Source of the DNA: Candidatus Oxydemutatoraceae bacterium
Lineage (GTDB): Bacteria > Pseudomonadota > Gammaproteobacteria > Poriferisulfidales > Oxydemutatoraceae
DNA: 64,000 nt
Direction of reading: 5' to 3'
NCBI GenBank assembly: GCA_965220085.1
Contig: CBDCOZ010000001.1
Location: 96,001-160,000 of the forward strand
Positions 9,723-51,169 of the stretch are shown one piece after another. Numbering within the stretch: the first letter of the stretch is position 1; every line of letters starts with the position of its first letter. Under the pieces are notes generated by a model that was not told where the DNA came from, did no database searches, and was given only the letters and a program-made list of their open reading frames with translations. The translations under genes and the position numbers were made by a program.

Positions 9723-12413
9723 ATGTCACAGCAACTTGTCTTGGTCGATGGTTCGTCGTATCTGCACAGAGCCTATCACGCGCTTGATTTAACCGGCCCC
9801 GAAGGCCGGCCGACCGGCGCGATCTATGGCGTGATCAATATGTTGCGCGCGCTGACCAAAACGTACGAGCCGGATTACTTTGCGGTGGTCTTCGATGCGC
9901 CCGGCAAAACGTTTCGTCACGAAATCTATCCCGGCTACAAAGCGCACCGCCCTCCGACGCCCGAAGACTTAAAACGTCAGTTTGAAATCACGCGCGACAT
10001 CATTGCGGCTTTGGGCTATCCGTTGTTGCAATACCAGGGGGTGGAAGCCGATGACGTCATCGGCACTTTGGCGCGGCAGGCTGTGGCGCAGGGGCTGAGC
10101 GTGCTCATCTCTACCGGCGACAAAGACATGGCGCAACTGGTCGACGACAAGACGCGCCTGATAGACACGATGAAGAAGAAGCAAGAAGAAGCCCTGACCG
10201 ACAGCGCCGCTAAGGTGAAGAAAAAATTCGGCGTGTTGCCGGAGCAGATAGCGGACTATCTCGCTCTGGTCGGCGATGCGTCCGACGGCATCCCCGGGGT
10301 TGCCGGGGTCGGGCCGAAGACCGCGGCGCAGTGGCTCAACGCGTGGGGTGATCTCGCCGGCGTGACGGAGCATATCGATGAGGTCAAGGGTGAGAAGACG
10401 AAGGAGGCGCTGCGAGAGACATTGCCGATGTTGGAGGTTTACCGAGATTTGACAACGATCAAATGCGCGCTGGAACTCAACGATGATCCGTTGTCTTTGA
10501 CCGTCGCCGACCCCGATATTGAAGCGTTGCGTCGCCTGTATCGGGATTGCGGATTTCGGCGCTGGCTTGAGGCGCTGGGCGATGACGGGGCGGCGGACGC
10601 TGCGCCCGACGACGGACCCGAGGTCGCGTATCGCCTGATACTGACCCAAGCGTCTTTGCAGGACTATTTGCGCCGCATACGCAAAGCCAAGCGCTTTGCT
10701 TTTGATATCGCGCTGTCCGGCGACCGCGCTGTTGACGCGCAGATCGTCGGCATCGCTTTGGCAATGGGGGAAGACGATGCCGTGTATATTCCGCTTGCGC
10801 ACAGCTACCCGGGCGCGCCGCAACAACTCGATCGCGAGCGCTGTCTGCGCCAACTCGCGCCGGTATTTGAGGATGCCGATTGCGCCAAGTCGGCGCACGA
10901 TGCAAAGCGCATGATACACGCCCTCGCCGCTTGCGACATCGCGTTGCGCGGCGTGAGCGATGACAGCATGCTCGCCTCTTATGTCTGTGACTCGGTCGCA
11001 AGCGATCACAGCATCGTCAAGGCGGCGCGCAAGTATCTCGCCATTGACACGATAGAACTCGAGACGATTGCGGGCAAAGGCGCGAAGCGGATCGCCTTCC
11101 CGCAGTTGGCGGTTAAAACGACCGGGGATTATCTGGCGCAGCGCGCGGATATGAGTCTGCGTTTGCAAGAATGCATCAAGCCGCGCCTCGCGCAAGACGG
11201 TTTGACGCGGGTGTATGAAGAGATTGAGATGCCCTTGCTGCCGGTGTTGGCGGCGATGGAGCGCAAGGGGGTTTTGCTCGATGCCGAGATACTCGCGCAA
11301 CAAAGCGCCGAACTCGAGCAGCGCGCGTCGGAGATCGAGCGCAAAGCGTTTGCGCAGGCCGGCAGCGAATTTAATATGAACTCGCCCAAGCAGATAGAAA
11401 CCATTCTCTATGATCAGATCGGTTTGCAACCCGAGAAAAAGACCAAAGGCGGCCAGCGCTCCACCGCCGAAGATGTTTTGAAGCAACTGGCGAACGAGCA
11501 CGAATTGCCGGAGTTGATCTTGCGGCATCGCGCTTTGAACAAACTCAAAACCTACGCCGATAGATTGCCGCTGATGGTCCATCCGCATAGCGGGCGCATC
11601 CACACGTCGTATCATCAGGCGGTGACGGCAACCGGACGGCTGTCGTCATCGGATCCCAACTTGCAGAACATCCCCATCAGGACCGAGGAGGGGCGCAGGA
11701 TCAGGCAAGCCTTCATCGCCCCGCCGGGCTGCCGCTTGCTGGCGATAGATTATTCGCAGATTGAGATGCGAATCATGGCGCACATGTCGGATGACGCCGC
11801 TTTGCTCAAGCGTTTTGCCGCCGGCGATGACATTCATTCGGCGACCGCCGCCGAGGTGTTCGGGTGCGCGCCGGCGCAGGTCGACAGAGACCAACGGCGC
11901 ATCGCGAAGGCGATCAACTTCGGCTTGATTTACGGCATGTCGGCATTCGGTCTGGCCAAGCAGCTCGGCATTGCGCGCAGCGAAGCGGTGCGCTACGTGG
12001 AGAAATACTTTGAGCATTATCCCGCGGTCAAGGATTATATGGAGCGCACACGCGCCCTCGCGCACGCGCAGGGTTTTGTCGAAACCATCAGCGGGCGGCG
12101 GTTGTATCTGCCCGATCTCAAATCACGCAACGCGCCGCTGAAACGTTATGCGGAGCGCACCGCCATCAACGCGCCGATGCAGGGTTCGGCGGCGGACATC
12201 ATCAAGCAAGCGATGATAGACATTCGCAAGGATTTGCCCGACGATGTGTTCATCATCATGCAGGTACACGACGAGCTCGTGCTGGAGGCGCCGCAAGACA
12301 AGGCGGCGGAAGTGCGCGAACAATGCTGTGACAAGATGTGCAAGGTGATGCCGTTCAAGGCGCCGTTGACGGTCGATGCGGGCGACGGCGCTAATTGGGA
12401 CGAAGCGCACTGA
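9723..12413 (+). CDS. polA: DNA polymerase I
   Basis: VDGSSYLHRAYHA 5'-3' exonuclease, TGRLSSSDPNLQNIP, DYSQIEMR, KAINFGLIYG, QVHDEL. Confidence 0.98.
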   Translation: MSQQLVLVDGSSYLHRAYHALDLTGPEGRPTGAIYGVINMLRALTKTYEPDYFAVVFDAPGKTFRHEIYPGYKAHRPPTPEDLKRQFEITRDIIAALGYPLLQYQGVEADDVIGTLARQAVAQGLSVLISTGDKDMAQLVDDKTRLIDTMKKKQEEALTDSAAKVKKKFGVLPEQIADYLALVGDASDGIPGVAGVGPKTAAQWLNAWGDLAGVTEHIDEVKGEKTKEALRETLPMLEVYRDLTTIKCALELNDDPLSLTVADPDIEALRRLYRDCGFRRWLEALGDDGAADAAPDDGPEVAYRLILTQASLQDYLRRIRKAKRFAFDIALSGDRAVDAQIVGIALAMGEDDAVYIPLAHSYPGAPQQLDRERCLRQLAPVFEDADCAKSAHDAKRMIHALAACDIALRGVSDDSMLASYVCDSVASDHSIVKAARKYLAIDTIELETIAGKGAKRIAFPQLAVKTTGDYLAQRADMSLRLQECIKPRLAQDGLTRVYEEIEMPLLPVLAAMERKGVLLDAEILAQQSAELEQRASEIERKAFAQAGSEFNMNSPKQIETILYDQIGLQPEKKTKGGQRSTAEDVLKQLANEHELPELILRHRALNKLKTYADRLPLMVHPHSGRIHTSYHQAVTATGRLSSSDPNLQNIPIRTEEGRRIRQAFIAPPGCRLLAIDYSQIEMRIMAHMSDDAALLKRFAAGDDIHSATAAEVFGCAPAQVDRDQRRIAKAINFGLIYGMSAFGLAKQLGIARSEAVRYVEKYFEHYPAVKDYMERTRALAHAQGFVETISGRRLYLPDLKSRNAPLKRYAERTAINAPMQGSAADIIKQAMIDIRKDLPDDVFIIMQVHDELVLEAPQDKAAEVREQCCDKMCKVMPFKAPLTVDAGDGANWDEAH

Positions 12414-12712
12414 GCCGCGCCCGCGCCGCTGAAACGTTATGCGGAGCGCACCGCCATCAACGCGCCGATGCAGGGTTCGGCGGCGGACATCATCAAGCAA
12501 GCGATGATAGACATTCGCAAGGATTTGCCCGACGATGTGTTCATCATCATGCAGGTATACGACGAGCTCGTGCTGGAGGCGCCGCAAGACAAGGCGGCGG
12601 AAGTGCGCGAACAATGCTGTGACAAGATGTGCAAGGTGATGCCGCTCAAGGCGCCGTTGACGGTCGATGCGGGCGACGGCGCTAATTGGGACGAAGCGCA
12701 CTGAGCCGCGCC
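12131..12712. repeat. 291-bp tandem duplication of the polA 3' end (2 copies)
   Basis: 12131-12421 repeated at 12422-12712 with two substitutions seen. Confidence 0.95.
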
Positions 12713-12721
12713 CGCCGCGCC

Positions 12722-13324
12722 TTACAACATCAGATAATCGCCGATTTTGCGCCGCGCCTCGCCTGCGCCTCTGCCTTTGTGGGCGGAAAATATTTGCGCG
12801 CCGATCGCGCTCCGCAGCATGCGCTCCAGTTGCGCCATCGTATCGCGCAGCGTTTGCGCGCCCGCGCTCCGCGACAACTTGTCGCTTTTTGTCAGCAATA
12901 TATGCAGCGGCAACTCGGGGCGGAGGGCGATGATCCAATCGATCACTTCCATATCCGGTGTGCCGAGCGCGCGCCGAATATCTGCGATTAAAAAGACGCA
13001 ACGAAGACTCTGCCGGTTTGAAAAATAATCGTTGAGTACCGCATCCCACTGCTGTCGGGTTTTTTCATTGACATTTGAATAACCGTAGCCGGGCAGATCC
13101 ACCAGCCGTTTTTCCGCGCTGACGGCAAAGAAGTTTATCGTCTGCGTGCGCCCGGGGGTCTTGCCGGTCTTGGCGATCTTTTGCTTGCAGATGGCATTGA
13201 TAGCGCTTGACTTGCCGGCGTTAGAACGGCCGATGAAGGCGAGTTCCGCGCCGCTGTCCGGCAAAAACTCTTGCGCCCGCATGGCGCTTTTGACGAAGCT
13301 GGTGTTAGCCAGGGGATTCTTCAT
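12722..13324 (-). CDS. engB: GTP-binding protein EngB/YihA
   Basis: GRSNAGKSS, PGRTQ, DLPGYG, TKSD. Confidence 0.95.
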   Translation of the reverse strand: MKNPLANTSFVKSAMRAQEFLPDSGAELAFIGRSNAGKSSAINAICKQKIAKTGKTPGRTQTINFFAVSAEKRLVDLPGYGYSNVNEKTRQQWDAVLNDYFSNRQSLRCVFLIADIRRALGTPDMEVIDWIIALRPELPLHILLTKSDKLSRSAGAQTLRDTMAQLERMLRSAIGAQIFSAHKGRGAGEARRKIGDYLML

Positions 13325-13340
13325 CGTCTCGCGCTGTCGG

Positions 13341-14462: not shown

Positions 14463-14620
14463 GATTCTATCGCGGTTTTGACCGTCATCGGGCTATATTA
14501 TTACCTGTTGCGGACTTCTGCCATAATGCGAGGCATGAAACGACCATATTTTCCGACACGTTGCACGAAAGTACGCCGAGGGCGTAGAATAAGCGCGATA
14601 TCAGGAGGCTGGAAATTGAT

Positions 14621-15154
14621 ATGAAAGAGATACTCAGATACCCGGACCCCAGGTTGCGCCACAAGGCCGAGCCGGTAACAGACTTCGACTCCGAAGTCGC
14701 GCGGATTGCGGACGAGCTGTTGGAGACGATGTATGCCGAGAACGGTATCGGTCTGGCGGCGACTCAGGTCAATATTCAAAAATCCATTCTGGTCGTCGAT
14801 GTGTCGGAGAAGCGCGACACCCCGATGCGTCTGGTCAATGCGCAGATTACGCGCCGAGAGGGCGAGGAAGTGATGCAAGAGGGTTGCTTATCGGTGCCCG
14901 GTATTTTTGCCGAGGTCAAGCGCGCCGAACGGATTCGGGTAAAAGCCTGCACGCCCGCGGGCGAAGCGCTGGACATTGAAGCCGACGGGATACTCGCTGT
15001 TTGCATTCAACACGAGATGGATCACCTTCGCGGCAAACTGTTCGTCGATTATCTGTCGCCGGAAAAACGCCGCCGCGTGCTGGAGCAACTGAGAAAGTTG
15101 CGCCCCGGAGAAAAGCCGCCGCCGCGGGAGAACGTCCCTTACGAACTGGTTTGA
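14621..15154 (+). CDS. def: Peptide deformylase
   Basis: [19 protein letters not shown]. Confidence 0.97.
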
Positions 15155-15174
15155 GCGCGTCCGCTAACTGAGAA

Positions 15175-16122: not shown

Positions 16123-17777
16123 AGACGATGATCAGACTGTTTTTAATCTGCATACTGGCGGCGGCTCCGTTCGTTGCCGTTGCGAACGGATATGCGATTG
16201 CAACGGCGCATCCGCTGGCAACCCAAGCGGGAGAGAAGATCCTCGCCGACGGCGGCAACGCATTCGATGCGGCGGTGACGGTCAGCGCGGTGTTGGGAGT
16301 GGTCGAGCCGTCCGGCTCCGGTTTTGGCGGCGGCGGTTTCTGGTTGCTGCACGAGAGCAAGACCGGCAAAGACATCATGGTGGACGGGCGCGAAGTCGCG
16401 CCGTCTGCCGCCCACGCCAAGTTGTATCAAGATGAGAACGGCGACGTCATCGCCGGCTTGTCGGCGGATGGCGCATTGGCCGCGGGCATACCCGGCATGC
16501 CGGCGGCATTGGCGCATATCGCCGAGCGTTACGGCAGTTTGCCGTTAGCGCACTTGCTGGCGCCGGCTGTGCGTCATGCCGAAGAAGGTTTTGCGGCGGA
16601 TGCGCGGCTTGTCCGCTATGCGAAGTCGCGCCTTGACGCATTGCGGGCACAGCCGCAAGATAGCATGCCCTTTCTTATCGGCAACGATGCGCCGAAGGTC
16701 GGCGATCGCATCCGGCAACGGGCTTTGGCAAACACGATCGGCAAGATAGCACAGCACGGCAAAGACGGCTTTTACCGCGGCGCCATCGCACAAGAGTTGG
16801 TCGCTTCGGTGCGGCGCGCGGGCGGCATCTGGCGGCTCAATGATTTGGCCGAGTACAAAGTGGTTGAGAGGCAGCCGATACGCATCACGTATAAAGGCGC
16901 CGATATCATCAGCGCGTCTCCGCCGTCGTCGGGGGGAATCGTGATAGCCGAGATACTCAACATCCTGTCCGAGTTTGACCTGCAAGGGATGTCGCCGCTG
17001 CAAAGGAAGCATCACATCATTGAGGCGATGCGCAGAGCATACAAAGACCGTTCAATGTGGCTGGGCGATCCGGATTTTGTCGAGATACCGCGCTACCTGA
17101 CGGACAAGAAATATGCCGCCACACTGGCGCGCGGCATCGATGCGACTGCCGCGACACCGAGCGGCGACTCCGCCGCCCCGCGCGAAGGCGAGAACACGAC
17201 GCATTTTTCTATCATCGATGCCGAAGGCAATCGGGTGGCGGCAACCTTGTCAATCAATTACCCGTTCGGTTGCGGTCTGATTGCCGGTACCACCGGCGTG
17301 TTGCTAAATAATGAGATGGACGATTTTGCCGCCGCGCCGGGCGCGGCCAACCTCTATGGTTTGACCGGCAGCGAGGCGAATTCCATCGCCGCCGGCAAGC
17401 GCATGTTGTCCAGCATGTCGCCGACCTTTGTGGAAGACGACGAACGCCTTGCGGCGCTCGGCACGCCCGGCGGCAGTCGCATCATCACGATGGTTCTGCT
17501 CGGCATCATGCGTTTCCTTGACGGCGACAGCGCCGGCGACATCGTCGCAGCGCCGCGCTTTCATCACCAGTATCTGCCCGATGTCGTGACCTTTGAGAGC
17601 GGCGCGCTGAGTGTCGGGATGCAGCGCGGCCTGCAAAAGCTCGGTCACAGCCTGAAACAACGACAGCGCCCCTACGGCAACATGCAGATCGTCATCCAAG
17701 ATAAGCGCAACGGAGCCTTGTCCGCGGCTTCCGATTCGCGCGGCATCGGCGCCGCAGCGGCAGGCATATTGCGTTGA
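16119..17777 (+). CDS. ggt: Gamma-glutamyltransferase
   Basis: Signal peptide, GGNAFDAA, SGFGGGGF, ENTTHFS, LLNNEMDDF, LSSMSP, GTPGGSRI. Confidence 0.95.
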   Translation: MKTMIRLFLICILAAAPFVAVANGYAIATAHPLATQAGEKILADGGNAFDAAVTVSAVLGVVEPSGSGFGGGGFWLLHESKTGKDIMVDGREVAPSAAHAKLYQDENGDVIAGLSADGALAAGIPGMPAALAHIAERYGSLPLAHLLAPAVRHAEEGFAADARLVRYAKSRLDALRAQPQDSMPFLIGNDAPKVGDRIRQRALANTIGKIAQHGKDGFYRGAIAQELVASVRRAGGIWRLNDLAEYKVVERQPIRITYKGADIISASPPSSGGIVIAEILNILSEFDLQGMSPLQRKHHIIEAMRRAYKDRSMWLGDPDFVEIPRYLTDKKYAATLARGIDATAATPSGDSAAPREGENTTHFSIIDAEGNRVAATLSINYPFGCGLIAGTTGVLLNNEMDDFAAAPGAANLYGLTGSEANSIAAGKRMLSSMSPTFVEDDERLAALGTPGGSRIITMVLLGIMRFLDGDSAGDIVAAPRFHHQYLPDVVTFESGALSVGMQRGLQKLGHSLKQRQRPYGNMQIVIQDKRNGALSAASDSRGIGAAAAGILR

Positions 17778-18009
17778 TGGCCATCCGAAATGCGCGCAAA
17801 GTTGCCATACTCCGCTTGCGGCTTGCAAAAGCTCGGTCACAGCCTGAAACAACGACAGCGCGCCTGCGGCAACATGCAGATCGTCATCCAAGATAAGCGC
17901 AACGGAGCCTTGTCCGCGGCTTCCGATTCGCGCGGCATCGGCGCCGCAGCGGCAGGCGCATTGCGTTGATGGCCATCCGAAATGCGCGTAAAGTTGCTAT
18001 ACTCCGTTT
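17626..18009. repeat. 192-bp tandem duplication of ggt 3' end plus DUF4390 gene 5' end
   Basis: 17626-17817 repeated at 17818-18009 with several substitutions. Confidence 0.92.
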
Positions 18010-18625
18010 TATGTATCTCATGAGCAATCGGTTAGCGGTCGGCGCGGTCGGCATTTTGGCGGTGTGGTGTGTTGTCACAACTCCGGTTGTCGGTCAAAAC
18101 GCGCATCAACAACCCGGCACGACGACCCACGGTCAAAGCGGAGACATCATCACGATAGAGTTCGGCGAGCCGGCGGTGCGCGACGGTGTCATTTCCTTGA
18201 ACGCGCAAGCGTCGTTTGAGTTGCCCGCCATGTTGGTGACCGCGCTGAACAAAGGAGTGAATCTGATTTTTGTCGGCGAGGCGGTGGTGTTGCAAGAGAG
18301 AGAGATGTGGCCGGACAAAGAGATTGTCAACATCCGCTTGCCCAGACGTTTGCGTTTCCACGCTCTGACGCGCAAATACATCGTGGATGACTTGGCGACA
18401 TCCGCTCAGGAAGCCTTTGACTCGTTAAACGCCGCGCTGCGCTACCTCGGCCGCTATGAGGATATAGTCCTGATCAAATCGTCGCTGGCTGCGGCGTCAC
18501 AAGCGACCCACGTGCGCATGCGCATGCGCCTTCAGCGCAACAATCTGGCCTTGCCGTTGCGTCTGCAAACCTATTTTTCCGCGCCATGGCCCATGTCTTC
18601 GGACTGGCGTCAATGGGCCCTCTGA
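17969..18625 (+). CDS. DUF4390 family protein
   Basis: ALNKGV, LRFHALTRKY, LPLRL motifs; position upstream of ntrY; start uncertain. Confidence 0.75.
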   Translation: MAIRNARKVAILRFMYLMSNRLAVGAVGILAVWCVVTTPVVGQNAHQQPGTTTHGQSGDIITIEFGEPAVRDGVISLNAQASFELPAMLVTALNKGVNLIFVGEAVVLQEREMWPDKEIVNIRLPRRLRFHALTRKYIVDDLATSAQEAFDSLNAALRYLGRYEDIVLIKSSLAAASQATHVRMRMRLQRNNLALPLRLQTYFSAPWPMSSDWRQWAL

Positions 18626-26247: not shown

Positions 26248-26296
26248 GAAAGGCCCCGCTCGCGCGAGGCGCGCGGATGGCGCGACAGAAGGAGGG

Positions 26297-26315
26297 CGCC
26301 GATTACATCGGCGCG
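26297..26315. terminator. Hairpin between convergent desaturase and rpmG
   Basis: gcgccgat-tac-atcggcgc 8-bp stem. Confidence 0.45.
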
Positions 26316-26317
26316 CC

Positions 26318-34650: not shown

Positions 34651-34693
34651 AGCATTACTCCTATGGTGGTTTGCATATACAGTGTGTTTCCCA

Positions 34694-35782: not shown

Positions 35783-35825
35783 AGCATTACTCCTATGGCG
35801 GTTTGCATATACAGTGTGTTTCCCA

Positions 35826-40312: not shown

Positions 40313-40763
40313 ATTAAAAGCGCCCGATATGCGCGGAGCAAAGTTCTTTTAACTTATGCGCCGATACTTGCAATGTAATTTTGTGATGCAACCATAATTA
40401 CATTAAACCATAAAATTGATTTTAGCAGAGGATGGTTAAAACGAGCGAGCGTATATATCGCGCTTTTTGAACTGTTCATCGGGATTGCGTAATTTTGCCC
40501 ATTGCCATTTTTAGTTATCGGCAGAAATCTATCTTCTGTTTGATGCCATGACATATCGGGCACATGGGGGCAAATGTTGTGTGTGTCATGAGCGCTTGAA
40601 GCTTCGGCCTATAGCGTGCTCCGTTATCCATAGCGATGCGCGGGATGCGCCGCCTTGAAACCTTGCCAAGACGGGGTTTGCGTTGCGGGGTGTTCCGCCG
40701 ATATGCCGATTGGGCTTATAATCCGAACTTCTGTTTCTTTTGCGCACTTGATAAGCTTCGGCA

Positions 40764-41120
40764 ATGGACAAAATTTTCATAAAAAGTCTGGTAGTAGAGA
40801 CCGCCATCGGCGTGTTTGAGTGGGAGAAGCATGTGCCGCAACGTCTGTGTCTTGATTTGGAGATCGGCGCCGATATCGCAGCGGCCGCTGCGAGCGATCA
40901 ATTGCAGGATACGATCGATTACAAAGCGGTGGCCAAACGGGCGCAGGCTTTTATGCAAGGGGAGCGGTTTGATTTGGTCGAGACCCTCGCCCACAGACTG
41001 GCCGATACGTTGGCGGCGGAGTTTGGCATGGCATACATTCGCCTGACGTTGAGCAAACCCGGCGCGGTACGCGGCTCGGATGCGGTGGGCATCGTCATCG
41101 AGCGCGGCAAGCGCGATTGA
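40764..41120 (+). CDS. folB: Dihydroneopterin aldolase
   Basis: IGVFEWEK, TIDY, LVETLA, KPGA. Confidence 0.95.
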   Translation: MDKIFIKSLVVETAIGVFEWEKHVPQRLCLDLEIGADIAAAAASDQLQDTIDYKAVAKRAQAFMQGERFDLVETLAHRLADTLAAEFGMAYIRLTLSKPGAVRGSDAVGIVIERGKRD

Positions 41121-41123
41121 GAC

Positions 41124-41618
41124 ATGGCCCGAGTGTTTGTCGGCGTCGGGAGCAATATTGACAAAGAGGAGAACATCGTTTCTTGCATCGGCATGTTGCG
41201 CGAGTCTTTTGGCGCGCTAAAGATGTCTTCGGTGTATCTCTCCAAGGCGGTCGGGTTTGAAGGAGATGATTTCTTGAACATGGTCGTGTCTTTCAAAACG
41301 GACATGTTGCCGCAAGAAGTGACGGCGGCGCTGAGCGCAATAGAAAAGCGACACGGCAGGGTCAAAAGCGAAAACAGCTTTGTGTCGCGGCAACTGGACC
41401 TTGACCAACTGCTGTATGACGATTTGGTCTGTGCGCGCGACGGGCTGTGTCTGCCGCACAAAGATGTTACCGAGAGTGTGTTTGTCATCGTGCCTTTGGC
41501 GGAGATTTGCGGCGCGTTGAAGCACCCGGTTTCGGGAGTCAGTTATAGCGAGTTGCGCGACGGCTTCGGCGATGTGTCCGATCAGATTCAGAAGGCGGAC
41601 TTCCGCTGGCGCCGCTAG
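41124..41618 (+). CDS. folK: 2-amino-4-hydroxy-6-hydroxymethyldihydropteridine diphosphokinase
   Basis: GVGSNI, FLNMV, RQLDLD, LPH. Confidence 0.93.
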   Translation: MARVFVGVGSNIDKEENIVSCIGMLRESFGALKMSSVYLSKAVGFEGDDFLNMVVSFKTDMLPQEVTAALSAIEKRHGRVKSENSFVSRQLDLDQLLYDDLVCARDGLCLPHKDVTESVFVIVPLAEICGALKHPVSGVSYSELRDGFGDVSDQIQKADFRWRR

Positions 41619-41799
41619 CGCGGCATCGACCGCCCTCAGTTGCCGAGGGTGCGCCCGCCGTCGACTTCGGGAGTCAGTTATAGCGAATTGCGCGACGGCT
41701 TCGGCGATGTGTCCGATCAGATTCAGAAGGCGGACTTCCGCTGGCTGTTAGCGCGGCAAGGAGCGCTCTCAGTTGCCGAGGGTGCGCCCGCCGTCGACT
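41531..41799. repeat. ~135-bp tandem duplication of the folK/folM convergent junction
   Basis: 41531-41665 repeated at 41666-41799 with a diverged spacer. Confidence 0.9.
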
Positions 41800-42509
41800 G
41801 TGATCGTTTGTCCGGTGATGTACTGCGCATCTTGTATCAGAAACAGGGCGGTGTTTGCAATGTCCAGCGGGTCGCCGGCGCGTTTTAGGGCGGTGCGCGA
41901 GATGATTGCTTCCCGCTGCCGCGGGTCGTCGTTTTCGGGCCACAGGATCGCTCCCGGCGCGATACCGTTGCAACGCACATCGGGCGCGAGTTCCCGTGCC
42001 AGAGAACGGGTCAGCATGGCCAAACCGGCTTTGCTGGCGCAATAGACCGGATGCCCTTTCAGCGAACGCTCGCCGTGGATGTCCAGCATGTTGATGATGC
42101 ATCCTTTGCGCCGGCGCAGTTCGTCGGCGAGGCGGCGAATCAGGAACAGCGGCGCTTTCAGGTTCACCGAGATGATCTCATCCCACTGCGCTTCGGTTAC
42201 GGTGTCTATCGCGGTCGGGTAGAAGACAGAGGCGTTGTTGATCAGGACATCGATGCGGTCTCGGATGCCGCGCGCTTCGTCGGCGAGGGCCTTGACTTGG
42301 TCGCAGCGGCGCAGGTCGGCTGTGAGCATATGCGCCGAGGCGGGCCGTTGCCGATTGAATGTCTCGATTAATTCTTGCGTCTCCTGTTGCGAGCGGCGGC
42401 AGTGCAGGATGATATGAAAGCCCGCGCAATGCAGTTTTTTGGCAATCTGTGCGCCGATGCGCCGTCCGGCGCCGGTAATCAAAATAACTTTTGCGGTTTT
42501 CTCGTCCAT
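41769..42509 (-). CDS. folM: Pteridine reductase (FolM-like SDR)
   Basis: TGAGRRIG, NNASVF, YCASK; located next to folBK. Confidence 0.85.
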   Translation of the reverse strand: MDEKTAKVILITGAGRRIGAQIAKKLHCAGFHIILHCRRSQQETQELIETFNRQRPASAHMLTADLRRCDQVKALADEARGIRDRIDVLINNASVFYPTAIDTVTEAQWDEIISVNLKAPLFLIRRLADELRRRKGCIINMLDIHGERSLKGHPVYCASKAGLAMLTRSLARELAPDVRCNGIAPGAILWPENDDPRQREAIISRTALKRAGDPLDIANTALFLIQDAQYITGQTITVDGGRTLGN

Positions 42510-42582
42510 CGTACGGTTTTGTCGTCCCATAGAAAAGTTTCTATTCTATACTGTTAGGGTAATCTCAGAAGCGCATCACCTC

Positions 42583-43362
42583 ATGGATATTCTTCAATCT
42601 GCTTTTTTGGCCTTGGTGCAAGGCATAACCGAATTTTTGCCGATCTCAAGTTCGGCCCATCTCATATTGGCGCCGGAGTTGCTCGGCTGGAGCGGCAGTC
42701 TGACATTTGATGTGGTCGCGCACGGCGGGACGCTGTGCGCGGTTGCGTTGCACTACCGCCGGCCGTTAGCGCTCGCTTTGCGCGCGTCCGATGACATCGC
42801 CTTGGGCGGCATCAGGGGCAAAGACCTGCTGTGGCATATGGTCATCGGGTCGTTGCCGATATTGGCGGCGGGTTTCTTTTTGTACGGCTTCGTCGATCTG
42901 CGCCTGCGCTCGCCGTTGTTGATAGCGGGCACGACGATCTTCTTTGCGCTGCTCTTGTGGCTTGCCGATCGCACGCGCCGCCGTCCCCGCGCGCTCGGCC
43001 CGATGGTGGCCTTGTGGGTGGGCTTGGCTCAGGTTCTCGCGCTGATTCCGGGCGTGTCGCGCGCCGGAATTACGCTGACGGCGGCGCGCTTTCTCGGCGT
43101 GTCCCGCAGCGATGCGGCGAACTTCTCTTTTTTGCTTGCGTTGCCGGTGATCGCGGCGGCAACGGCATATGAAGCATTCGTTTTGTTTGACGGATACGAG
43201 GATGTCGCGCTTGACGCGCTGCTGACCGGCTTTGTCGTTGCGGCGGTATTTGCGCTGATGACGATCCGCCTGTTTCTGCGCTTTGTGGAAACCGTCGGTC
43301 TGTTGCCGTTTGTGATATACCGCGTGATAGTCGGCTGCGTGTTGCTTTTTATATATCTTTGA
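42583..43362 (+). CDS. uppP: Undecaprenyl-diphosphatase
   Basis: QGITEFLPISSSAH, PGVSRAG. Confidence 0.95.
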   Translation: MDILQSAFLALVQGITEFLPISSSAHLILAPELLGWSGSLTFDVVAHGGTLCAVALHYRRPLALALRASDDIALGGIRGKDLLWHMVIGSLPILAAGFFLYGFVDLRLRSPLLIAGTTIFFALLLWLADRTRRRPRALGPMVALWVGLAQVLALIPGVSRAGITLTAARFLGVSRSDAANFSFLLALPVIAAATAYEAFVLFDGYEDVALDALLTGFVVAAVFALMTIRLFLRFVETVGLLPFVIYRVIVGCVLLFIYL

Positions 43363-44177
43363 GCGCGGCCAGTCGTATCTTGCGCACGCGCTCGCGAATA
43401 TCGCGATGAGGCTTGGCGGTAAGCTCTATATCATGAACATCTTGCGCACGGATACGAGGATGTCGCGCTTGACGCGCTGCTGACCGGCTTTGTCGTTGCG
43501 GCGGTATTTGCGCTGATGACGATCCGCCTGTTTCTGCGCTTTGTGGAAACCGTCGGTCTGTTGCCGTTTGTGGTCTGCCGCGTGATAGTCGGCTGCGTGT
43601 TGCTTTTTATATATCTTTGAGCGCGGCCAGTCGTATCTTGCGCACGCGCTCGCGAATATCGCGATGAGGCTTGGCGGTAAGCTCTATATCATGAACATCT
43701 TGCGCACGGATACGAGGATGTCGCGCTTGACGCGCTGCTGACCGGCTTTGTCGTTGCGGCGGTATTTGCGCTGATGACGATCCGCCTGTTTCTGCGCTTT
43801 GTGGAAACCGTCGGTCTGTTGCCGTTTGTGGTCTGCCGCATGATAGTCGGCTGCGTGTTGCTTTTTATATGCCTTTGAGCGCGGCCAGTCGTATCTTGCG
43901 CACGCGCTCGCGAATATCGCGATGAGGCTTGGCGGTAAGCTCTATATCATGAACATCTTGCGCACGGATACGAGGATGTCGCGCTTGACGCGCTGCTGAC
44001 CGGCTTTGTCGTTGCGGCGGTATTTGCGCTGATGACGATCCGCCTGTTTCTGCGCTTTGTGGAAACCGTCGGTCTGTTGCCGTTTGTGGTCTGCCGCGTG
44101 ATAGTCGGCTGCGTATTGCTTTTTATATGCCTTTGAGCGCGGCCAGTCGTATCTTGCGCACACGCTCGCGAATATCG
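43190..44177. repeat. 258-bp tandem repeat (3 full copies plus 1 partial) of the uppP/cca overlap
   Basis: Units start at 43190, 43448, 43706 and 43964. Confidence 0.95.
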
Positions 44178-45217
44178 TCTTGGTCGTAATCTTTTAATTC
44201 CGTTTTGAAGTCAATTTTCTTTAGTGTAGCAATCGCGCGGCGCAGTCGCTCCGCGCCGACCGGCGTCGTTTGTTCGCACAGCAGGCACGCCGTCAGCAGC
44301 GTGTCAAAAACGGATGTTTTGCGCAAGGCGTCATTCCGCTCGATGACATCCAGCGCCTCCGCTTCCGACATATCGGCCGCTTGCATCAGCCGCCCGCCGT
44401 TGCGAATCGCCAGCGCGGCGAGCCGGTGGTAATCCTGTTTGAGTTTGAGCCTGTGGCACAGCGGCAACAACGAGGCGCCGCTAGCGCGCGCGAGCAGGGC
44501 GAGCGCCGCAAACAATGTCGCGGGGGGGTGATTCGCCGCGCAGTCATCCAGTATGCGCGCACAGGCCGCGGATTTTGTCAGGAACTCCAACTCGGGAAAG
44601 GTCTTCTGCAAAGCGCCCGCTTGGTTGAGCGCGCCGAAGAAAACGGACGGGTTCTCTCCCTCCAACGTTTTCTCCGCCTCCTGCCATACGCGTTCGGCGA
44701 CGAGATGGTCGGCTTCTCCGGCGGCAACCATTTTTTGCATCAGCGCCTGTGTCTGCGCAACGATGACAAAGCCGAGGGCATGAAGTTTTGCGGCAAAGCG
44801 CGCGGCGCGCAGGATTCTGACCGGGTCTTCGGCAAATGCGTCCGACACATGTCGCAACTTGCGATTTTTGAGATCGTCAAGCCCGCCCCACGGGTCGATG
44901 AGTCGTTCGTTGGCATCAAACGCCATGGCATTGACAGTCAGGTCGCGTCTTTTCAGATCTTCGGCAAGGCTGACTTCGGGCGATGCGTCAAACTCAAAAC
45001 CGTGATAGCCCGGCGCGGTTTTGCGTTCGGTCCTGGCGAGGGCATATTCCTCGCCGCTGTCGGGATGGATGAATACCGGGAAATGCCGTCCGACCGGTTT
45101 GAAGCCTTTGGCGACCATGTCGGCGGCCGTCGTTCCGACGACGACCCAGTCTTTTTCGTCGCTGGGCATGCCAAGAAGTGTATCGCGAACCGCGCCGCCG
45201 ACAAGGTAGATTTGCAT
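44123..45217 (-). CDS. cca: CCA tRNA nucleotidyltransferase (short form)
   Basis: VGGAVRD, EYALARTERK, RRDLTVNAMA, EDPVRILRAARF. Confidence 0.93.
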   Translation of the reverse strand: MQIYLVGGAVRDTLLGMPSDEKDWVVVGTTAADMVAKGFKPVGRHFPVFIHPDSGEEYALARTERKTAPGYHGFEFDASPEVSLAEDLKRRDLTVNAMAFDANERLIDPWGGLDDLKNRKLRHVSDAFAEDPVRILRAARFAAKLHALGFVIVAQTQALMQKMVAAGEADHLVAERVWQEAEKTLEGENPSVFFGALNQAGALQKTFPELEFLTKSAACARILDDCAANHPPATLFAALALLARASGASLLPLCHRLKLKQDYHRLAALAIRNGGRLMQAADMSEAEALDVIERNDALRKTSVFDTLLTACLLCEQTTPVGAERLRRAIATLKKIDFKTELKDYDQDDIRERVRKIRLAALKGI

Positions 45218-45326
45218 ATTGTTATTCCGATGATATGTTCGTCTATTATAGACTTGTTATCGCGGCGGGTCTGTTCTTTTTTCCGTCTCCGCTCTCCGTT
45301 GAAGCGGATATTGTTATGATATTGCA

Positions 45327-46214
45327 GTGATGACTCCGTCTATAAAGATAATCAGAGCAGGTCTCGGCGGCTTTGCCTTGTCCGTGTTTCTGCTCGCGCC
45401 GGCTGCGGCTTCCGACAAGGTCTTTGCCGAGGATCTGTATCGGCAAGCGCTGGAACGGTTTCGGGCAAACGATTTCAAAAAGGCGCACAGACTGTTGCAG
45501 GCGCTCGATGAAAAATATCCGGATCATCCCGTCGTTCTCAATAATCTCGGCGTGGTGTCGGGCAAACTCGGCAAGTTGCAACTGGCCGAAGATCTGTTTG
45601 AACGCGTGATAGCGCTCAACCGCGCGACAGCGGCGAGTTACCACAACCTGCAAAAGATATACGACCGTCGCGCCGCCGAAACCTATCGCCGGGCCTTGGT
45701 GCTGGATGCGGAGCCGCTGCCCGCGCCCGACTTCAGATTTATCACGCCTGCCGCGCCGCCGGCAGCGGTTGCGGAGGCTTCCGCCGCCGAGCGGGTGCTG
45801 GCCGATGAACGGGTGGCGAAGCCGATGGTTGAGGAGCCGCAACGCGCGGATGGCTTGGTTGCGGAGGAGGAAGAGCAGGAGGTTCTTCGCTTTGTTACGA
45901 GTTGGGCGCGGGCGTGGTCGGCGCGCGATACCGATGCCTATTTTTCGCACTATGCGGATGATTATCGCCCGCGCGCCAGCGTCACGAACGCCAAGTGGAA
46001 AAAGAGCCGGACGAAGCGGCTGCGCGCGCCCGAATTTATTGCGGTCAACGTGTCCGCAGTGCGTGTGACGGAGAACGAGGACGGGCGCGATGTGACCTTC
46101 GTCCAGAGTTATGAGTCAAACCTTTTGCGCAGCGTAGTGACCAAGAGGCTGTTGCTGAAAAGAACCGCCGACGGGTGGAAGATTGCCAGAGAAAGGGTCG
46201 CGGAGAGGCAGTGA
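45327..46214 (+). CDS. Exported TPR plus NTF2-like domain protein
   Basis: Signal peptide, NNLGV TPR, WARAWS...YFSHY...FVQSY...WKIARE. Confidence 0.75.
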   Translation: MMTPSIKIIRAGLGGFALSVFLLAPAAASDKVFAEDLYRQALERFRANDFKKAHRLLQALDEKYPDHPVVLNNLGVVSGKLGKLQLAEDLFERVIALNRATAASYHNLQKIYDRRAAETYRRALVLDAEPLPAPDFRFITPAAPPAAVAEASAAERVLADERVAKPMVEEPQRADGLVAEEEEQEVLRFVTSWARAWSARDTDAYFSHYADDYRPRASVTNAKWKKSRTKRLRAPEFIAVNVSAVRVTENEDGRDVTFVQSYESNLLRSVVTKRLLLKRTADGWKIARERVAERQ

Positions 46215-46225
46215 GGGGCTTGAGT

Positions 46226-47422
46226 ATGCGTACGCTTAAATCGTGTGTGCTGCTGTGTGTCGGCGGCTTTGCCTGTGGCTTTGCCGGCGGGCTTGCCAGC
46301 GCACAGCCCGCCGCAGACGCGTTGCGCGAACCGCTTGAGACCGAACTCGGCGAAGCGCTGTCGCTGCTCGTGTCGGGGGATTCCGCCGCCGCGGGCGCAG
46401 CGCTGGAGGCGATCATCCGGGAGTATCCCGAGTTTCGTCCGGCGCAGATGATTCAAGGCGACCTCTATGCCGCTCGCAGCGGCGGCAAACCCTTGCTGCC
46501 GTCGGCGGCCGGACAGCGCAAAGTGCGCATCGCCGACATGATGAAAGAGCTCAAAGCGCGTTACGACTATCGTCCCGATTACGCCGACAAGATGCCGGAT
46601 GCCATTTTGCGCTTGTCGTCCGTGCATCCTTACGCGCTGCTGTTTGATGCCGATGATTCGCGCCTTTACTTGTTGCGCAATCACAAGGACGGCCCGCAGT
46701 TGGTCGCGGATTATTATGCGTCGTATGGCAGGAACGGCATGGATAAGCGCGATGAGGGCGACAGCCGCACGCCGACCGGCGTATACCGGGTGGGGCATAT
46801 CTATGCCGATGATGAGTTGCCGGAACTCTACGGCAACGGCGCGTACGCGCTCAATTACCCGAACCGCTGGGACCGGTTGCAAGGGCATGACGGCGGCGGC
46901 ATTTGGTTGCACGGGGTGCCGCGCATAACCCATAGCCGTCCGCCGCAAGCCAGCCGCGGTTGCATCGTCATCAGCAACGATGCGATCGATTGGCTGCGCG
47001 AACTTGGCGGCGCGGAATCGGCGCCGGTGGTGCTCGCCGCGCGGGTCAAGTGGTTGCGCAGAAAAGAATGGCTCAGCCGGCGCAAGGCCTTGATCGGCGC
47101 CCTGCGCGCTTGGCAGCAGGACTGGCAGAGTTTGGATGTTGAGAAATATTTGTCCCATTATTCCGCCGCCTATCGCGATGAGAAGTTTGATTATCAGGCG
47201 ATGCTTGCGAGCGCGCGGCGCAACGCAAAAGCAAAGACTTCGATCAACGTGGAGATTAAGAATCTGGACTTGATGTTGTATTCGGGGCAGCCGAACCCGG
47301 TGTTTGTCGCCAGGTTTGATCAGGATTATAAGAGCAATAATTATTCGGTCGCGTATCGCAAGCAGCAGATGTGGCGCCTGCAAGACGGAGAGTGGAAGAT
47401 AATCTTTGAGGGGCGCGCCTAG
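46226..47422 (+). CDS. L,D-transpeptidase (YkuD) family protein with C-terminal NTF2-like domain
   Basis: EGDSRTPTGVY, IWLHG...SRGC. Confidence 0.85.
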   Translation: MRTLKSCVLLCVGGFACGFAGGLASAQPAADALREPLETELGEALSLLVSGDSAAAGAALEAIIREYPEFRPAQMIQGDLYAARSGGKPLLPSAAGQRKVRIADMMKELKARYDYRPDYADKMPDAILRLSSVHPYALLFDADDSRLYLLRNHKDGPQLVADYYASYGRNGMDKRDEGDSRTPTGVYRVGHIYADDELPELYGNGAYALNYPNRWDRLQGHDGGGIWLHGVPRITHSRPPQASRGCIVISNDAIDWLRELGGAESAPVVLAARVKWLRRKEWLSRRKALIGALRAWQQDWQSLDVEKYLSHYSAAYRDEKFDYQAMLASARRNAKAKTSINVEIKNLDLMLYSGQPNPVFVARFDQDYKSNNYSVAYRKQQMWRLQDGEWKIIFEGRA

Positions 47423-47957
47423 CCTCGCAGTCAGGGCGATCGTTGCGGGATGTTGAGGCGCAACCAGCGCGCCAGATCGACCCACATATCGCGCAGGTCT
47501 CGGTCCGCGGGCATGTAGCGCGATGATGCGAGTTCGATCGTCAGCGTCGGTATCCGCAAATCCTCGCCGGCGTAGCGCCCGAGAGCCGGGGAAAGTCGGC
47601 AGGTCTCTGAACGGCAACGGGCCGAGGCGTGACGGCGGTTTGATCGCGGCGGGGCCGTCGTAATCCACGAGGCCGTAAGGCGAGGGGGGCGCCTAGCCTC
47701 GCAGTCAGGGCGATCGTTGCGGGATGTTGAGGCGCAACCAGCGCACCAGATCGACCCACATATCGCGCAGGTCTCGGTCCGCGGGCATGTAGCGCGATGA
47801 TGCGAGTTCGATCGTCAGCGTCGGTATCCGCAAATCCTCGCCGGCGTAGCGCCCGAGAGAGCCGGGGAAAGTCGGCAGGTCTCTGAACGGCAACGGGCCG
47901 AGGCGTGACGGCGGTTTGATCGCGGCGGGGCCGTCGTAATCCACGAGGCCGTAAGGC
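47408..47957. repeat. ~276-bp tandem duplication of the L,D-transpeptidase/peptidase junction
   Basis: 47408-47681 (carrying a 2-bp deletion) and 47682-47957. Confidence 0.92.
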
Positions 47958-48586
47958 GAGTGCAAACTGACGATGACATCGGGCTTGAACGCATCGATGT
48001 GCTCGGAAAGCCAGCGGCTTTCGCTTTCGCTCAAAGCCTGTTTGCCCGGGTTGCGGCGCGCGTCTCCTCCGGCGCGGCTTTGCCAGTAAGCGTTGGCCGT
48101 GCTGTCCCAGTCTTTGCTGGCCATGTTTCGGTTGAGGTCCACTCGGTTGTCATTGGTTCGTGTCGCGGGCCGCTTGAGCAATCCGTCGATATTGACAGAG
48201 GGGGCGATATGCCAATGGAACAGACCGGAGTGGTGGCGGTCGAGAATTTTCATCCACTTGATCATGACGCTGAACGAAGCGTATTCATCTCCGTGTATGC
48301 CGCCGATCAACAGCACCCTCGCATGGGGCGGCTTGTCGCCCAAGGGCGGATATTCTTTGTAGACCAGCGCGCGCCCTTGGGCGGTGCGCGCGCCGGTATC
48401 CGCCAGATTGAGGTCCAAGCATTCGCGGACGCCGACCGAACTCAGTTTATTGCCCAATAACTCGCATATCTCGGCGACGCCCGAAGTTTGCGGGTTTTGG
48501 GCCAATACCGATGTTGCGGAAAATACCAATAGTGGCAAAAATCGGCAAAGTATTGTAGACTCGGCTTTGGTATATCTTTCAAGCAT
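47705..48586 (-). CDS. M14 zinc peptidase, murein peptide amidase MpaA-like
   Basis: GGIHGDE, VDLNRN, SLH, PGSLG, TIEL. Confidence 0.82.
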   Translation of the reverse strand: MLERYTKAESTILCRFLPLLVFSATSVLAQNPQTSGVAEICELLGNKLSSVGVRECLDLNLADTGARTAQGRALVYKEYPPLGDKPPHARVLLIGGIHGDEYASFSVMIKWMKILDRHHSGLFHWHIAPSVNIDGLLKRPATRTNDNRVDLNRNMASKDWDSTANAYWQSRAGGDARRNPGKQALSESESRWLSEHIDAFKPDVIVSLHSPYGLVDYDGPAAIKPPSRLGPLPFRDLPTFPGSLGRYAGEDLRIPTLTIELASSRYMPADRDLRDMWVDLVRWLRLNIPQRSP

Positions 48587-48635
48587 TGCTAGAATAGCTT
48601 ACCACTCATATTCATCCCATATCGGAGTTTAACAA

Positions 48636-48962
48636 TTGAACGAACATATTATCAAAGGAAGCGAAGATAATTTCCAGAAAGAAGTTATTGAATCGGACCT
48701 CCCGGTGCTGGTAGACTTTTGGGCCGACTGGTGCGGGCCGTGCAAGATGATTGCCCCCATACTGGATAATTTCTCGGAGAAGTACAAAGACCGTCTCAAG
48801 ATCGTGAAGGTCAATGTGGACGAGAATAAGGAACTGCCGGCGAAATACGGTGTGCGAGGCATTCCGACCCTGATTATTTTCAATAATGGCAGCGTCAAGG
48901 ATCAGAGCGTAGGGGCCTTGTCCCCCGCTCAACTTGCGGCATTTATAGACAAATCACTGTAG
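48636..48962 (+). CDS. trxA: Thioredoxin
   Basis: WCGPC; upstream of rho. Confidence 0.96.
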   Translation: MNEHIIKGSEDNFQKEVIESDLPVLVDFWADWCGPCKMIAPILDNFSEKYKDRLKIVKVNVDENKELPAKYGVRGIPTLIIFNNGSVKDQSVGALSPAQLAAFIDKSL

Positions 48963-49144
48963 TCGTTTAAGCCCGATTGACACATGAGCGGATATTTGTG
49001 GTAGGATAGTCCCCGTCGCCGGACATTTTGCATAAAAAGCCCGGCGGAATCCCGAAGCCACGTTTCGTAATTCCCTTAGTACCCAATTTTTTTATTACCT
49101 TTATTACCTTGTTGAATCAATTTGACTGAAAGAAGAACAATCTT

Positions 49145-50398
49145 ATGGATCTCGCACAACTGAAAAAACAACCGACCGAAGAGCTGTTAAAAACAGCCGA
49201 GTCTTTGGGCATAGAAAATATTGCCCGCGCCCGTCGCCAAGACATCATCTTTTCCATCCTCAAGGCGAAAGCCCGCAACCGCGAGGACATCATGAGCGAA
49301 GGCGTTCTTGAAATCCTGCAAGACGGGTTCGGGTTTCTGCGTTCGCCCGACGGCTCTTATCTTGCCGGCCCGGACGATGTGTATGTCTCGCCAAGCCAGA
49401 TAAGACGTTTTGATCTGCGCACCGGCGATACCGTTTCCGGCAAGATTCGCCCGCCGAAAGACGGCGAGCGGTATTTTGCCCTGCTCAAGATAAGCACCAT
49501 CAACTTTGAAGCGCCGGAGCAGGCGCGCAACAAGGTGCTGTTTGAGAATCTGACGCCTTTGCATGCCGATGAGCGGTTGCGGATGGAGCGCGGCGACGGC
49601 AGTTCCGAAGACATTACCGCCAGAGTCATAGATATCTGCGCGCCGATCGGCATGGGGCAAAGGGGTTTGATCGTCTCGCCGCCGAAGGCGGGCAAGACCC
49701 TGATGTTGCAAAACATCGCCCAGAGTATCGCGCTGAATTCGGAGTGCTATCTGATCGTGTTGCTGATCGATGAGCGTCCGGAGGAAGTGACCGAGATGCA
49801 ACGTTCTGTCAGGGGGGAAGTGCTCTCCAGCACGTTTGACGAACCCGCTTCTCGCCATGTGCAGGTTGCGAATATGGCGATAGAAAAAGCCAAGCGTCTG
49901 GTCGAGCACAAGAAAAATGTCATCATCTTGTTGGATTCCATCACCCGTTTGGCGCGCGCCTACAATACGGTGGTGCCGTCTTCGGGCAAAGTGCTGACCG
50001 GCGGCGTTGACGCCAATGCCCTGCATCGTCCCAAACGATTCTTTGGCGCCGCGCGCAACATAGAAGAGGGCGGCAGCCTGACGATTATTGCCACGGCGCT
50101 GATCGATACCGGTTCCAAGATGGACGAGGTCATCTACGAGGAATTCAAGGGCACCGGCAATATGGAGATTCACCTCGACCGCCACCTTGCCGAGCGCAGA
50201 ATCTATCCGGCGATCAACCTGAAGCGTTCCGGCACTCGGCGCGAAGAGTTGCTGATGGGCGAGGAGGAGTTGCAGAAGGTGTGGGTGTTGCGCAAGTTTA
50301 TCGACCCGATGGACGCCGCCGAAGCCACCTCGTTTTTGGTGCCGAGGTTGCAGAATACGAAGACCAACGGCGAATTCTTTGATGCGATGAAGAACTGA
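49145..50398 (+). CDS. rho: Transcription termination factor Rho
   Basis: [31 protein letters not shown]. Confidence 0.98.
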
Positions 50399-51169
50399 GC
50401 GTTCTCCCCGCCCGCTCAGTCGCGGGCGCGGCGCAACGCGCGCCACCCGATGTCCTTGCGATAAAAGACTCCGTCCCAGGAGATGCGGCGGCAGGTTTCG
50501 TACGCCCGTTGCCGCGCTTGCGCGATATCCTCGCCGAGCGATGTCACGCACAACACCCGCCCGCCGGCGGTCACCGCCCGGTTTTGTCTGATTCCGATGG
50601 ACGCCGCCGAAGCCGCCGCGTTTTTGGCGCCGAGGTTGCAGAATACGAAGACCAACGGCGAATTCTTTGATGCGATGAAGAACTGAGCGTTCTCCCCGCC
50701 CGCTCAGTCGCGGGCGCGGCGCAACGCGCGCCACCCGATGTCCTTGCGATAAAAGACTCCGTCCCAGGAGATGCGGCGGCAGGTTTCGTACGCCCGTTGC
50801 CGCGCTTGCGCGATATCCTCGCCGAGCGATGTCACGCACAACACCCGCCCGCCGGCGGTCACCGCCCGGTTTTGTCTGATTCCGATGGATGCCGCCGAAG
50901 CCGCCGCGTTTTTGGCGCCGAGGTTGCAGGATACGAAGACCAACGGCGAATTCTTTGATGCGATGAAGAACTGAGCGTTCTCCCCGCCCGCTCAGTCGCG
51001 GGCGCGGCGCAACGCGCGCCACCCGATGTCCTTGCGATAAAAGACTCCGTCCCAGGAGATGCGGCGGCAGGTTTCGTACGCCCGTTGCCGCGCTTGCGCG
51101 ATATCCTCGCCGAGCGATGTCACGCACAACACCCGCCCGCCGGCGGTCACCGCCCGGTTTTGTTTGATC
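50306..51169. repeat. 288-bp tandem triplication of the rho/purD convergent junction
   Basis: Units start at 50306, 50594 and 50882. Confidence 0.95.

Follow-up and report, generated by a model that had tools for sequence, protein, structure and literature searches.

Six tandem arrays built from the 3′ ends of genes lie in a 64,000-nucleotide stretch of DNA from a Candidatus Oxydemutatoraceae bacterium (C1:96001-160000; hereafter the window), and they are probably local tandem duplications of the ordinary kind, which this genome and its family produce unusually often. For the organism as a whole, the explanation that we favor is that this small uncultured marine bacterium belongs to a duplication-prone lineage, the arrays of which are likely sifted by purifying selection. 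Its genome (G000) is a metagenome-derived assembly of 2.49 Mb in three contigs, with a coding share of about 85% and about 2,000 genes as estimated by our own gene caller.

Duplicated Gene Tails in the Window

Tandem Repeats Finder (TRF), run on the window and on the whole genome, recovers all six arrays that the original prediction had proposed (93–99% identity, two to 3.8 copies; Table 1); the other two TRF rows in the window are trivial (15 bp × 1.9 and 24 bp × 2). All six consist of head-to-tail direct copies with nothing intervening, and the repeated unit in each case is tail sequence from the adjoining genes, i.e., local sequence, the six units being mutually unrelated. The folK/pteridine reductase (folM) unit includes both stop codons (the last 88 bp of folK and the last 31 bp of the reductase gene, with 15 bp of spacer between them), the rho/purD unit runs from the last 93 bp of rho through 17 bp of spacer into the last 178 bp of purD, and the unit shared with the MpaA-like amidase gene joins 251 bp of that gene's tail, across an 8-bp spacer, to 15 bp of tail from the + strand gene at 46175-47422. 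The uppP/cca unit has 173 bp of uppP tail, with a 14-bp overlap with the tail of the convergent cca; this array, which had been counted as fourfold, is present in 3.8 copies, the last of them partial and lacking a 43–44 bp end segment that copies 1–3 carry. A 43-mer of this unit has three matches in the window, all within its own array. The polA/engB unit comprises the final 283 bp of polA, including the stop codon, and 8 bp of the 17-bp spacer, so that the duplication proposed for this gene pair involves the polA tail but leaves the engB stop codon outside. The ggt unit consists of the final 152 bp of ggt and 40 bp of downstream sequence and lies at a co-directional junction; the assignment of the duplications to convergent junctions therefore holds for the other five arrays but not for this one.

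Displayed copy by copy, the arrays exhibit point differences, two indels, and variants common to neighboring copies, with copies differing by 1–7%. Every gene flanking the six arrays is intact and none is truncated, the working end of the + strand gene being found in the first unit and that of the − strand gene in the last; the earlier statement that the copies have diverged and that no gene is broken is accordingly upheld. Gene names are based on an NCBIfam scan of 12 window proteins, which yielded full-length matches for polA, engB/YihA, ggt, folK, uppP, cca, rho, and purD, all as originally named, as well as for the pteridine reductase, and a partial match for the MpaA-like amidase. Two of the 12 proteins scanned (17966-18625 and 46175-47422) have no NCBIfam match.

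Our gene map places seven convergent junctions in the window, five of them with an array, in agreement with the original count. Measured within one unit, the spacers at the affected junctions are 17 bp (polA/engB), 15 bp (folK/folM), −14 bp (the uppP/cca overlap), 8 bp, and 17 bp; the tiny spacers described earlier are reproduced except at folK/folM, where 17 bp had been given and the copies differ by an indel. None of the five has a significant fold (z of +0.68, −0.69, −0.53, +1.13, and −1.58), while the two unaffected junctions have longer spacers with hairpins, a contrast within the window that had also been pointed out before. At the genome-wide rate of 47 affected junctions in 246, the probability of five or more among seven is 0.004, so the window is richer in junction arrays than the genome average.

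Table 1. Arrays, selected flanking genes, and unaffected convergent junctions (window positions)
Feature	Position	Strand	Unit and copies	Identity	Details
polA/engB array	12131-12715		291 bp × 2.0	99%	TRF
ggt array	17626-18006		192 bp × 2.0	96%	TRF
folK/pteridine reductase (folM) array	41531-41799		135 bp × 2.0	93%	TRF; one indel
uppP/cca array	43190-44177		258 bp × 3.8	98%	TRF
46175-47422 gene/MpaA-like amidase array	47408-47960		274 bp × 2.0	98%	TRF; one indel
rho/purD array	50306-51168		288 bp × 3.0	98%	TRF
polA	9741-12413	+			intact; ends in array copy 1; NF004397 positions 5-889 (of 889) aligned with residues 1-890
engB/yihA	12722-13324	−			intact; stop codon 7 bp past polA/engB array
rho	49145-50398	+			intact; ends in copy 1; 1-415 match 1-413 of 413
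purD	50992-52281	−			intact; ends in copy 3; 1-424 match 1-424 of 425
Unaffected convergent junction	6229-6270				42-bp spacer; hairpin −27.3 kcal/mol, z −3.26, 0 of 200 shuffles fold as well
Unaffected convergent junction	26248-26317				70-bp spacer; hairpin −40.3 kcal/mol, z −2.25, 4 of 200 shuffles fold as well

Extent and Placement across the Genome

In the whole genome TRF identified 343 arrays after merging, and in 243 of these the period is at least 60 bp. These divide into recent arrays (141; period 60–500 bp, identity at least 90%, at least 1.8 copies), older arrays in the same size range (79), arrays with a period above 500 bp (18), and arrays with a period below 60 bp (105). The main tests use only the 141 recent arrays, which have copy numbers of 2 to 14 and a density of 5.7 per 100 kb. 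Genes were mapped with a crude caller of our own (hexamer log-odds trained on long open reading frames, greedy choice, and start trimming), which was checked in the window only, a caveat that applies to every placement count given here. The recent arrays include 40 in intergenic sequence, 24 across co-directional junctions, 21 over a single 3′ end, 11 over a single 5′ end, and 19 that are intragenic and in frame.

Recent arrays touch 47 of 246 convergent junctions (19.1%), whereas the share is 4.6% (64 of 1394) for co-directional and 3.3% (8 of 243) for divergent ones (p = 4e-13 and 1.5e-8 in Fisher tests). Where the ancestral spacer is shorter than 25 bp, arrays occur on 30 of 106 convergent versus 23 of 672 co-directional junctions (p = 1e-14); convergent junctions with longer spacers carry them in 17 of 140 cases. 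The genome-wide enrichment at convergent junctions that had been put forward as a check is thus found.

To obtain a null distribution for placement, each recent array was collapsed to its basic unit, meaning a single copy together with a partial one where present, genes were re-called, and units of the observed lengths were dropped at random in 500 placements. Units with both convergent stop codons were observed 23 times against an expectation of 1.54 (simulated maximum 6), a 15-fold excess. Units consisting of one 3′ end plus spacer (20 observed, 7.73 expected), co-directional junction units (23 and 9.45), and units restricted to intergenic sequence (41 and 12.04) also exceed expectation; those with one 5′ end plus spacer are close to it (10 and 9.20), no unit spans a divergent junction (0.95 expected), and intragenic units are 4× rarer than expected (24 and 100.1). 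Grouped by context, the ratio of observed to expected rises from 1.1× in divergent to 2.4× in co-directional and 7.6× in convergent surroundings.

The 19 intragenic recent arrays all have a period divisible by 3 (P = 9e-10), and among arrays at convergent junctions the periods leave remainders of 0, 1, and 2 in 19, 13, and 15 cases, respectively. Regional clustering was considered and rejected: on contig C3, counts per approximately 102 kb have a mean of 4.68 and a variance of 5.89, near Poisson. Although the duplications had been presented as a property of convergent junctions, the many co-directional, intergenic, and intragenic arrays indicate that those junctions are one face of a genome- and family-wide tendency.

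Arrays in Related Genera

We sampled four relatives (G009, G003, G001, and G002), 200 kb each as ten 20-kb stretches, with the same pipeline; they represent other genera of the same family, and only one genome of the genus of G000 is available among its relatives. Recent arrays per 100 kb number 7.0 in G009, 3.0 in G003, 1.0 in G001, and 0 in G002. The proposed comparison with sister genomes therefore reveals similar densities in some related genera, and the tendency toward tandem duplication is lineage- or family-wide, as shown in some of those genera. In G009, six arrays hold a 3′ end and adjacent spacer, one is convergent, two hold a 5′ end, three are intergenic, and two are intragenic in frame; both there and in G003, gene ends are the usual location, and every intragenic array is in frame.

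The nearest named relatives of the G000 Rho protein, at 78–80% identity, belong to Granulosicoccaceae and to unclassified Gammaproteobacteria MAGs. The convergent arrangement of rho and purD is kept across the family. At this junction, the relative G008 has an array of its own (200 bp × 2) that contains the purD tail only and arose where the two stop codons originally overlapped; the rho/purD arrays of G000 and G008 are an independent recurrence. Another relative, G007, has a 38 bp × 4.3 repeat in the rho/purD spacer.

Repair and topology genes were examined as a possible cause and rejected, as none tracks array density (high in G000, G009, and G003; low in G001 and G002). G000 encodes an intact recA, mutS, mutL, xseA, a full-length uvrD-like gene, parC, and a RecB-like protein. 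G009 and G003 have a recJ gene, whereas G000, G001, and G002 lack one; only G001 has a clear recQ, which is missing in both G000 and the array-poor G002; and parC, found in the array-rich genomes, is lacking in G002 alone. The ExoI domain was found in none of the five family genomes searched, yet only one of 14 control genomes has it. In G002, for which a completeness of 99% is given, no parC scored above the family cut-off, and only a gyrA-like paralogue was found.

Proposed Formation of the Arrays and Their Sifting by Selection

According to the proposed mechanism, a random stretch of 60–500 bp would be duplicated, partly because the polymerase slips, or switches template, from one short direct repeat to another; unequal exchange between the copies would then shift the copy number up or down, and purifying selection would purge the harmful duplications. 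Duplications at co-directional junctions would disturb coupling to the next gene, and those over 5′ ends or promoters would be costly. Duplications over two tails that meet without a terminator would disturb nothing, and for this reason surviving arrays would accumulate at tight convergent junctions. From geometry, a tandem duplication that turns A-B-C into A-B-B-C should retain all original adjacencies; because of this, a unit with a gene end would leave the gene whole, and only intragenic units would alter a protein. How the arrays form at the molecular level is an inference, as is the idea that their distribution is due to selection alone.

Such a sieve explains the order divergent < co-directional < convergent. 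It fits with this view that the least tolerated noncoding targets are 5′ ends and divergent promoters and that the best tolerated are two tails without regulatory sequence. The unit borders are scattered and there is no fixed break site, the position of the junction within the unit fitting a uniform distribution (25 arrays; Kolmogorov–Smirnov p = 0.36). Microhomology of at least 4 bp is found at the borders of 39% of 82 near-integer arrays, versus 2.7% of control positions; in the window, microhomology remainders of approximately 3 and 5 bp occur in two arrays and none in three. Later unequal exchange between copies is plausible, recA being intact.

Several observations weigh against slippage followed by a simple sieve. 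The median border microhomology is only 1.5 bp, with none in 28 of the 82 arrays, and the last copy is partial in 53 of 141, so no single simple route fits all arrays and slippage between short repeats accounts for only part of the births. Moreover, a plain sieve predicts that all duplications in a convergent context survive equally, which is not the case: within that context, enrichment is 15× for units with both stops, 5.2× for those with one, and 4.1× for spacer-only units. Of the 42 arrays in this context, 23 have both-stop units, where a share of 0.28 was expected (binomial p = 2e-4), and at the pooled intergenic-only ratio of 3.4× one would expect 5.2 both-stop arrays where 23 are seen (Poisson P = 7e-9). 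This corresponds to an excess of about 4× over the intergenic-only rate and 3× within the convergent context, although part of the gap between both-stop and spacer-only units could come from the gene map, as genes overlooked in long spacers would reduce the spacer-only ratios and give a false impression of how tolerant such spacers are, making it too high.

The age of the arrays is the other difficulty. Convergent arrays make up 47 of 114 non-intragenic arrays (41%) at an identity of at least 92% and 6 of 39 (15%) below it (Fisher p = 0.003), a comparison subject to the caveat that one copy in a convergent array is also under selection and hence diverges more slowly. The youth of these arrays is the opposite of what a slow sieve would produce, since older arrays should then be richer in the harmless class; a hotspot, or arrays that are born often and lost quickly, would be a better match.

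Convergent Junctions as Possible Hotspots of Duplication

A possible but unlikely alternative is that tight, terminator-less convergent junctions form duplications faster, with selection still purging harmful ones elsewhere. Converging RNA polymerases would trap positive supercoils or collide, replication forks would stall, and the nascent strand would switch template, so that the convergent excess would partly reflect birth. The roughly 4× greater enrichment of both-stop over spacer-only units, overall and in the convergent context, speaks for this, as do the youth of the convergent arrays, expected of frequent birth and fast loss, and the separate events at rho/purD in G000 and G008. A physical basis for a hotspot exists, because positive supercoils build up between convergent genes in Escherichia coli (PMC8360656).

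The scattered unit borders, with no preferred break site, argue against a hotspot, and the recurrence at rho/purD loses weight because 20–28% occupancy of tight junctions makes the coincidence of arrays at the same junction in two genomes unremarkable. The distribution of parC, which stands for topoisomerase IV, also runs counter to it, the gene being missing only where arrays are scarce. GC skew delineates clear replichores in G000, with 63.4% of genes on the leading strand. Co-directional arrays are not biased to the lagging strand (38 of 64 junctions with arrays are leading, versus 914 of 1330; p = 0.13), nor do convergent arrays favor the tail of the head-on gene over that of the co-directional gene (medians 72 and 93 bp; p = 0.13). 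We found no signal of head-on replication conflict in either test and rejected it.

Folding is likewise similar in the 30 tight convergent junctions that bear an array and in the 76 that lack one (median z −0.66 and −0.36; p = 0.38). The absence of hairpins was thus rejected as a determinant among tight convergent junctions. Longer convergent spacers are more structured, 19% having z below −2 (n = 73); array presence tracks spacer length rather than hairpins, so the contrast seen in the window is mostly one of spacer length.

We consider it unlikely that, in this family of small marine gammaproteobacteria, tail-to-tail junctions without terminators are true hotspots at which converging transcription repeatedly triggers fast-turnover duplications, with spare tails perhaps kept transiently to give Rho room. 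If this were true, the genome would be a natural record of a mutation process dependent on transcription geometry.

Spare Tails as Possible Room for Termination

That the arrays are kept for a benefit is improbable. Under this hypothesis, the 135–800 bp of extra untranslated spacer would let Rho stop transcripts before they run antisense into the working part of the neighboring gene. It agrees with the contrast in the window, in which the five affected junctions have spacers of at most 17 bp without a significant hairpin and the two unaffected ones have strong hairpins, with the preference for convergent spacers shorter than 25 bp, and with the presence of an intact rho. Set against these points, geometry by itself favors tight junctions for both-stop units, and the spare copies are the coding tail of the neighbor itself, so that read-through would still yield RNA antisense to its mRNA. 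Terminator-like sites are not enriched in 40000-52500 (24 versus 18.9 ± 5.3 in shuffles). A strong benefit is further argued against because no old arrays of the convergent kind persist, which is unexpected for a selected feature, and because 76 of the 106 tight convergent junctions remain unduplicated while folding no differently.

The original prediction had offered two causes, namely duplication triggered by convergent transcription and retention of duplications as buffer space for termination; the tests of replication orientation, folding, and terminator-like sites establish neither.

Reality of the Arrays

The arrays are real DNA. Public reads of run X1, which has 94% of the sampled words from a 9.9-kb stretch with four arrays, provide a view that is independent of the assembler, although this run may be the source data of the assembly and thus not an independent sample. 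The k-mer depth is 102.6 in the uppP/cca array (3.8 copies), 49.1 in 47408-47960 (2), and 88.4 in the rho/purD array (3), compared with 27.7–34 in the flanks (about 28–30 for the second of these arrays and about 30 for the third). Depth in these three arrays is thus 1.7–3.4× that of the flanks and tracks the assembled copy number, so the read depth does not point to the single copies that had been named as a refutation. Logan contigs of the run, built from de Bruijn graphs, end at the array borders; because units of 150–300 bp at 95–99% identity break such contigs, arrays of this kind may be under-reported.

That assembly or polishing falsely duplicated short segments is highly improbable, despite the metagenomic origin of the three-contig assembly and the possibility that the best-matching run is its source, since depth rises with copy number, copies differ by 1–7% with variants shared between neighbors, the same kind of array occurs in other genera, and placement follows both reading frame (19 of 19 intragenic arrays) and gene orientation, to which an assembler is blind.

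Comparison with Known Systems

The nearest known mechanism is the one studied in E. coli, where tandem duplication and amplification begin with a strand that slips or switches template at microhomology and continue with unequal exchange (PMC1428787). The arrays of G000 resemble this process in having head-to-tail local copies, short microhomology at a large minority of borders, copy numbers of 2–14, and RecA. They differ in that the events are small (60–500 bp), numerous (141 in 2.49 Mb), and fixed naturally rather than dosage-selected, many borders lack microhomology, and 53 of 141 arrays end partially.

The nearest natural case is Ehrlichia ruminantium, which exhibits active expansion and contraction of tandem repeats in noncoding regions; its intergenic regions are long and its coding ratio is about 64% (PMC10710844). 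It shares with G000 a small host-associated genome, very many tandem repeats, and signs of turnover; unlike it, G000 is compact (about 85% coding), its units are mostly gene ends, and its top excess lies at convergent stop-to-stop junctions.

Two classes of dispersed element were also compared. The MIRUs of mycobacteria are a dispersed family with a shared consensus. The G000 arrays resemble MIRU-VNTR loci in being minisatellite-size arrays at gene junctions with intact flanking genes, but each derives from its own local sequence, with periods of 60–500 bp; a MIRU-like dispersed family was rejected, as the six window units share no consensus. Like REP/BIME elements, the arrays favor the space between convergent genes, and so does a REP-like hairpin family of G000 itself, which is unrelated to the arrays and follows the same order of permissiveness (convergent > co-directional > divergent). 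The arrays are not palindromic, however, and none of the 142 REP-like motif matches falls in the window; with z between +1.13 and −1.58 at the affected junctions, a REP/BIME element was rejected.

The REP-like hairpin itself (CTCYCC-N3-9-GGRGAG) is dispersed in G000, with 142 matches versus 7 expected from shuffles, 129 of them intergenic. Per kb of spacer, it occurs at 0.25 convergent, 0.11 co-directional, and 0.09 divergent junctions, i.e., about twofold more at convergent ones, and several 60–66 bp tandem arrays hold it. A CRISPR-like interpretation of the 60–75 bp arrays that end in a half-unit was rejected as well, because whole units are 91–100% alike and no repeat is common to them.

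A literature search returned no report of systematic gene-tail duplication at bacterial convergent junctions, which is not proof of absence. Three features set the present case apart from the known ones: the compact genome, the gene-tail units, and the quantified convergent stop-to-stop excess.

Spare Tails and Other Repeats

The spare rho tails differ from the working copy by 3–4 residues, reading AEAAAFLA where the latter has AEATSFLV; all three changes in AEAAAFLA are A/T to G/C and give alanine codons. At this site, relatives read EA(V/T/I/M)EF(L/M/I)L, nearer to the working copy than to the spare tails.

Spare tails invite false calls of small genes, of which our own composition-based caller made three in the window (12468-12704, 50416-50655, and 50704-50943; 78–79 residues). 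Automatic annotation of this genome would likely list such fragments as hypothetical proteins. Elsewhere in the genome, a spare uvrD tail (C3:133512-133977) contains a 94-residue open frame matching positions 663–715 of the uvrD family; it directly follows the full-length uvrD-like gene (C3:131469-133655) and coincides with a 227 bp × 2.1 array at a convergent junction.

Repeats of other kinds are also present. At 34586-36869 (C1:130586-132869), a 1132-bp period × 2 with 85% identity represents an older tandem duplication of a whole gene, comprising − strand paralogues of about 300 residues at 34694-35608 and 35826-36767. Two tandem arrays of 73–76 bp (C1:160121-160273 and C3:1503465-1503651), each 100% identical internally, have in common an AT-rich unit in which the words GTTTGTGCTC and CACAAACAA recur; the former starts 121 bp past the end of the window.

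Significance

Tandem duplications are normally seen only when they are selected for dosage or as a handful of typing loci. The placement of the 141 young arrays in G000 is a read-out of the duplications that a compact bacterial genome tolerates: within genes only in frame, at 5′ ends rarely, across divergent promoters never found, and across two gene tails freely. Together with its relatives of high and low array density, this bacterium offers a natural system for asking what makes a lineage prone to duplication and whether convergent transcription raises the rate.

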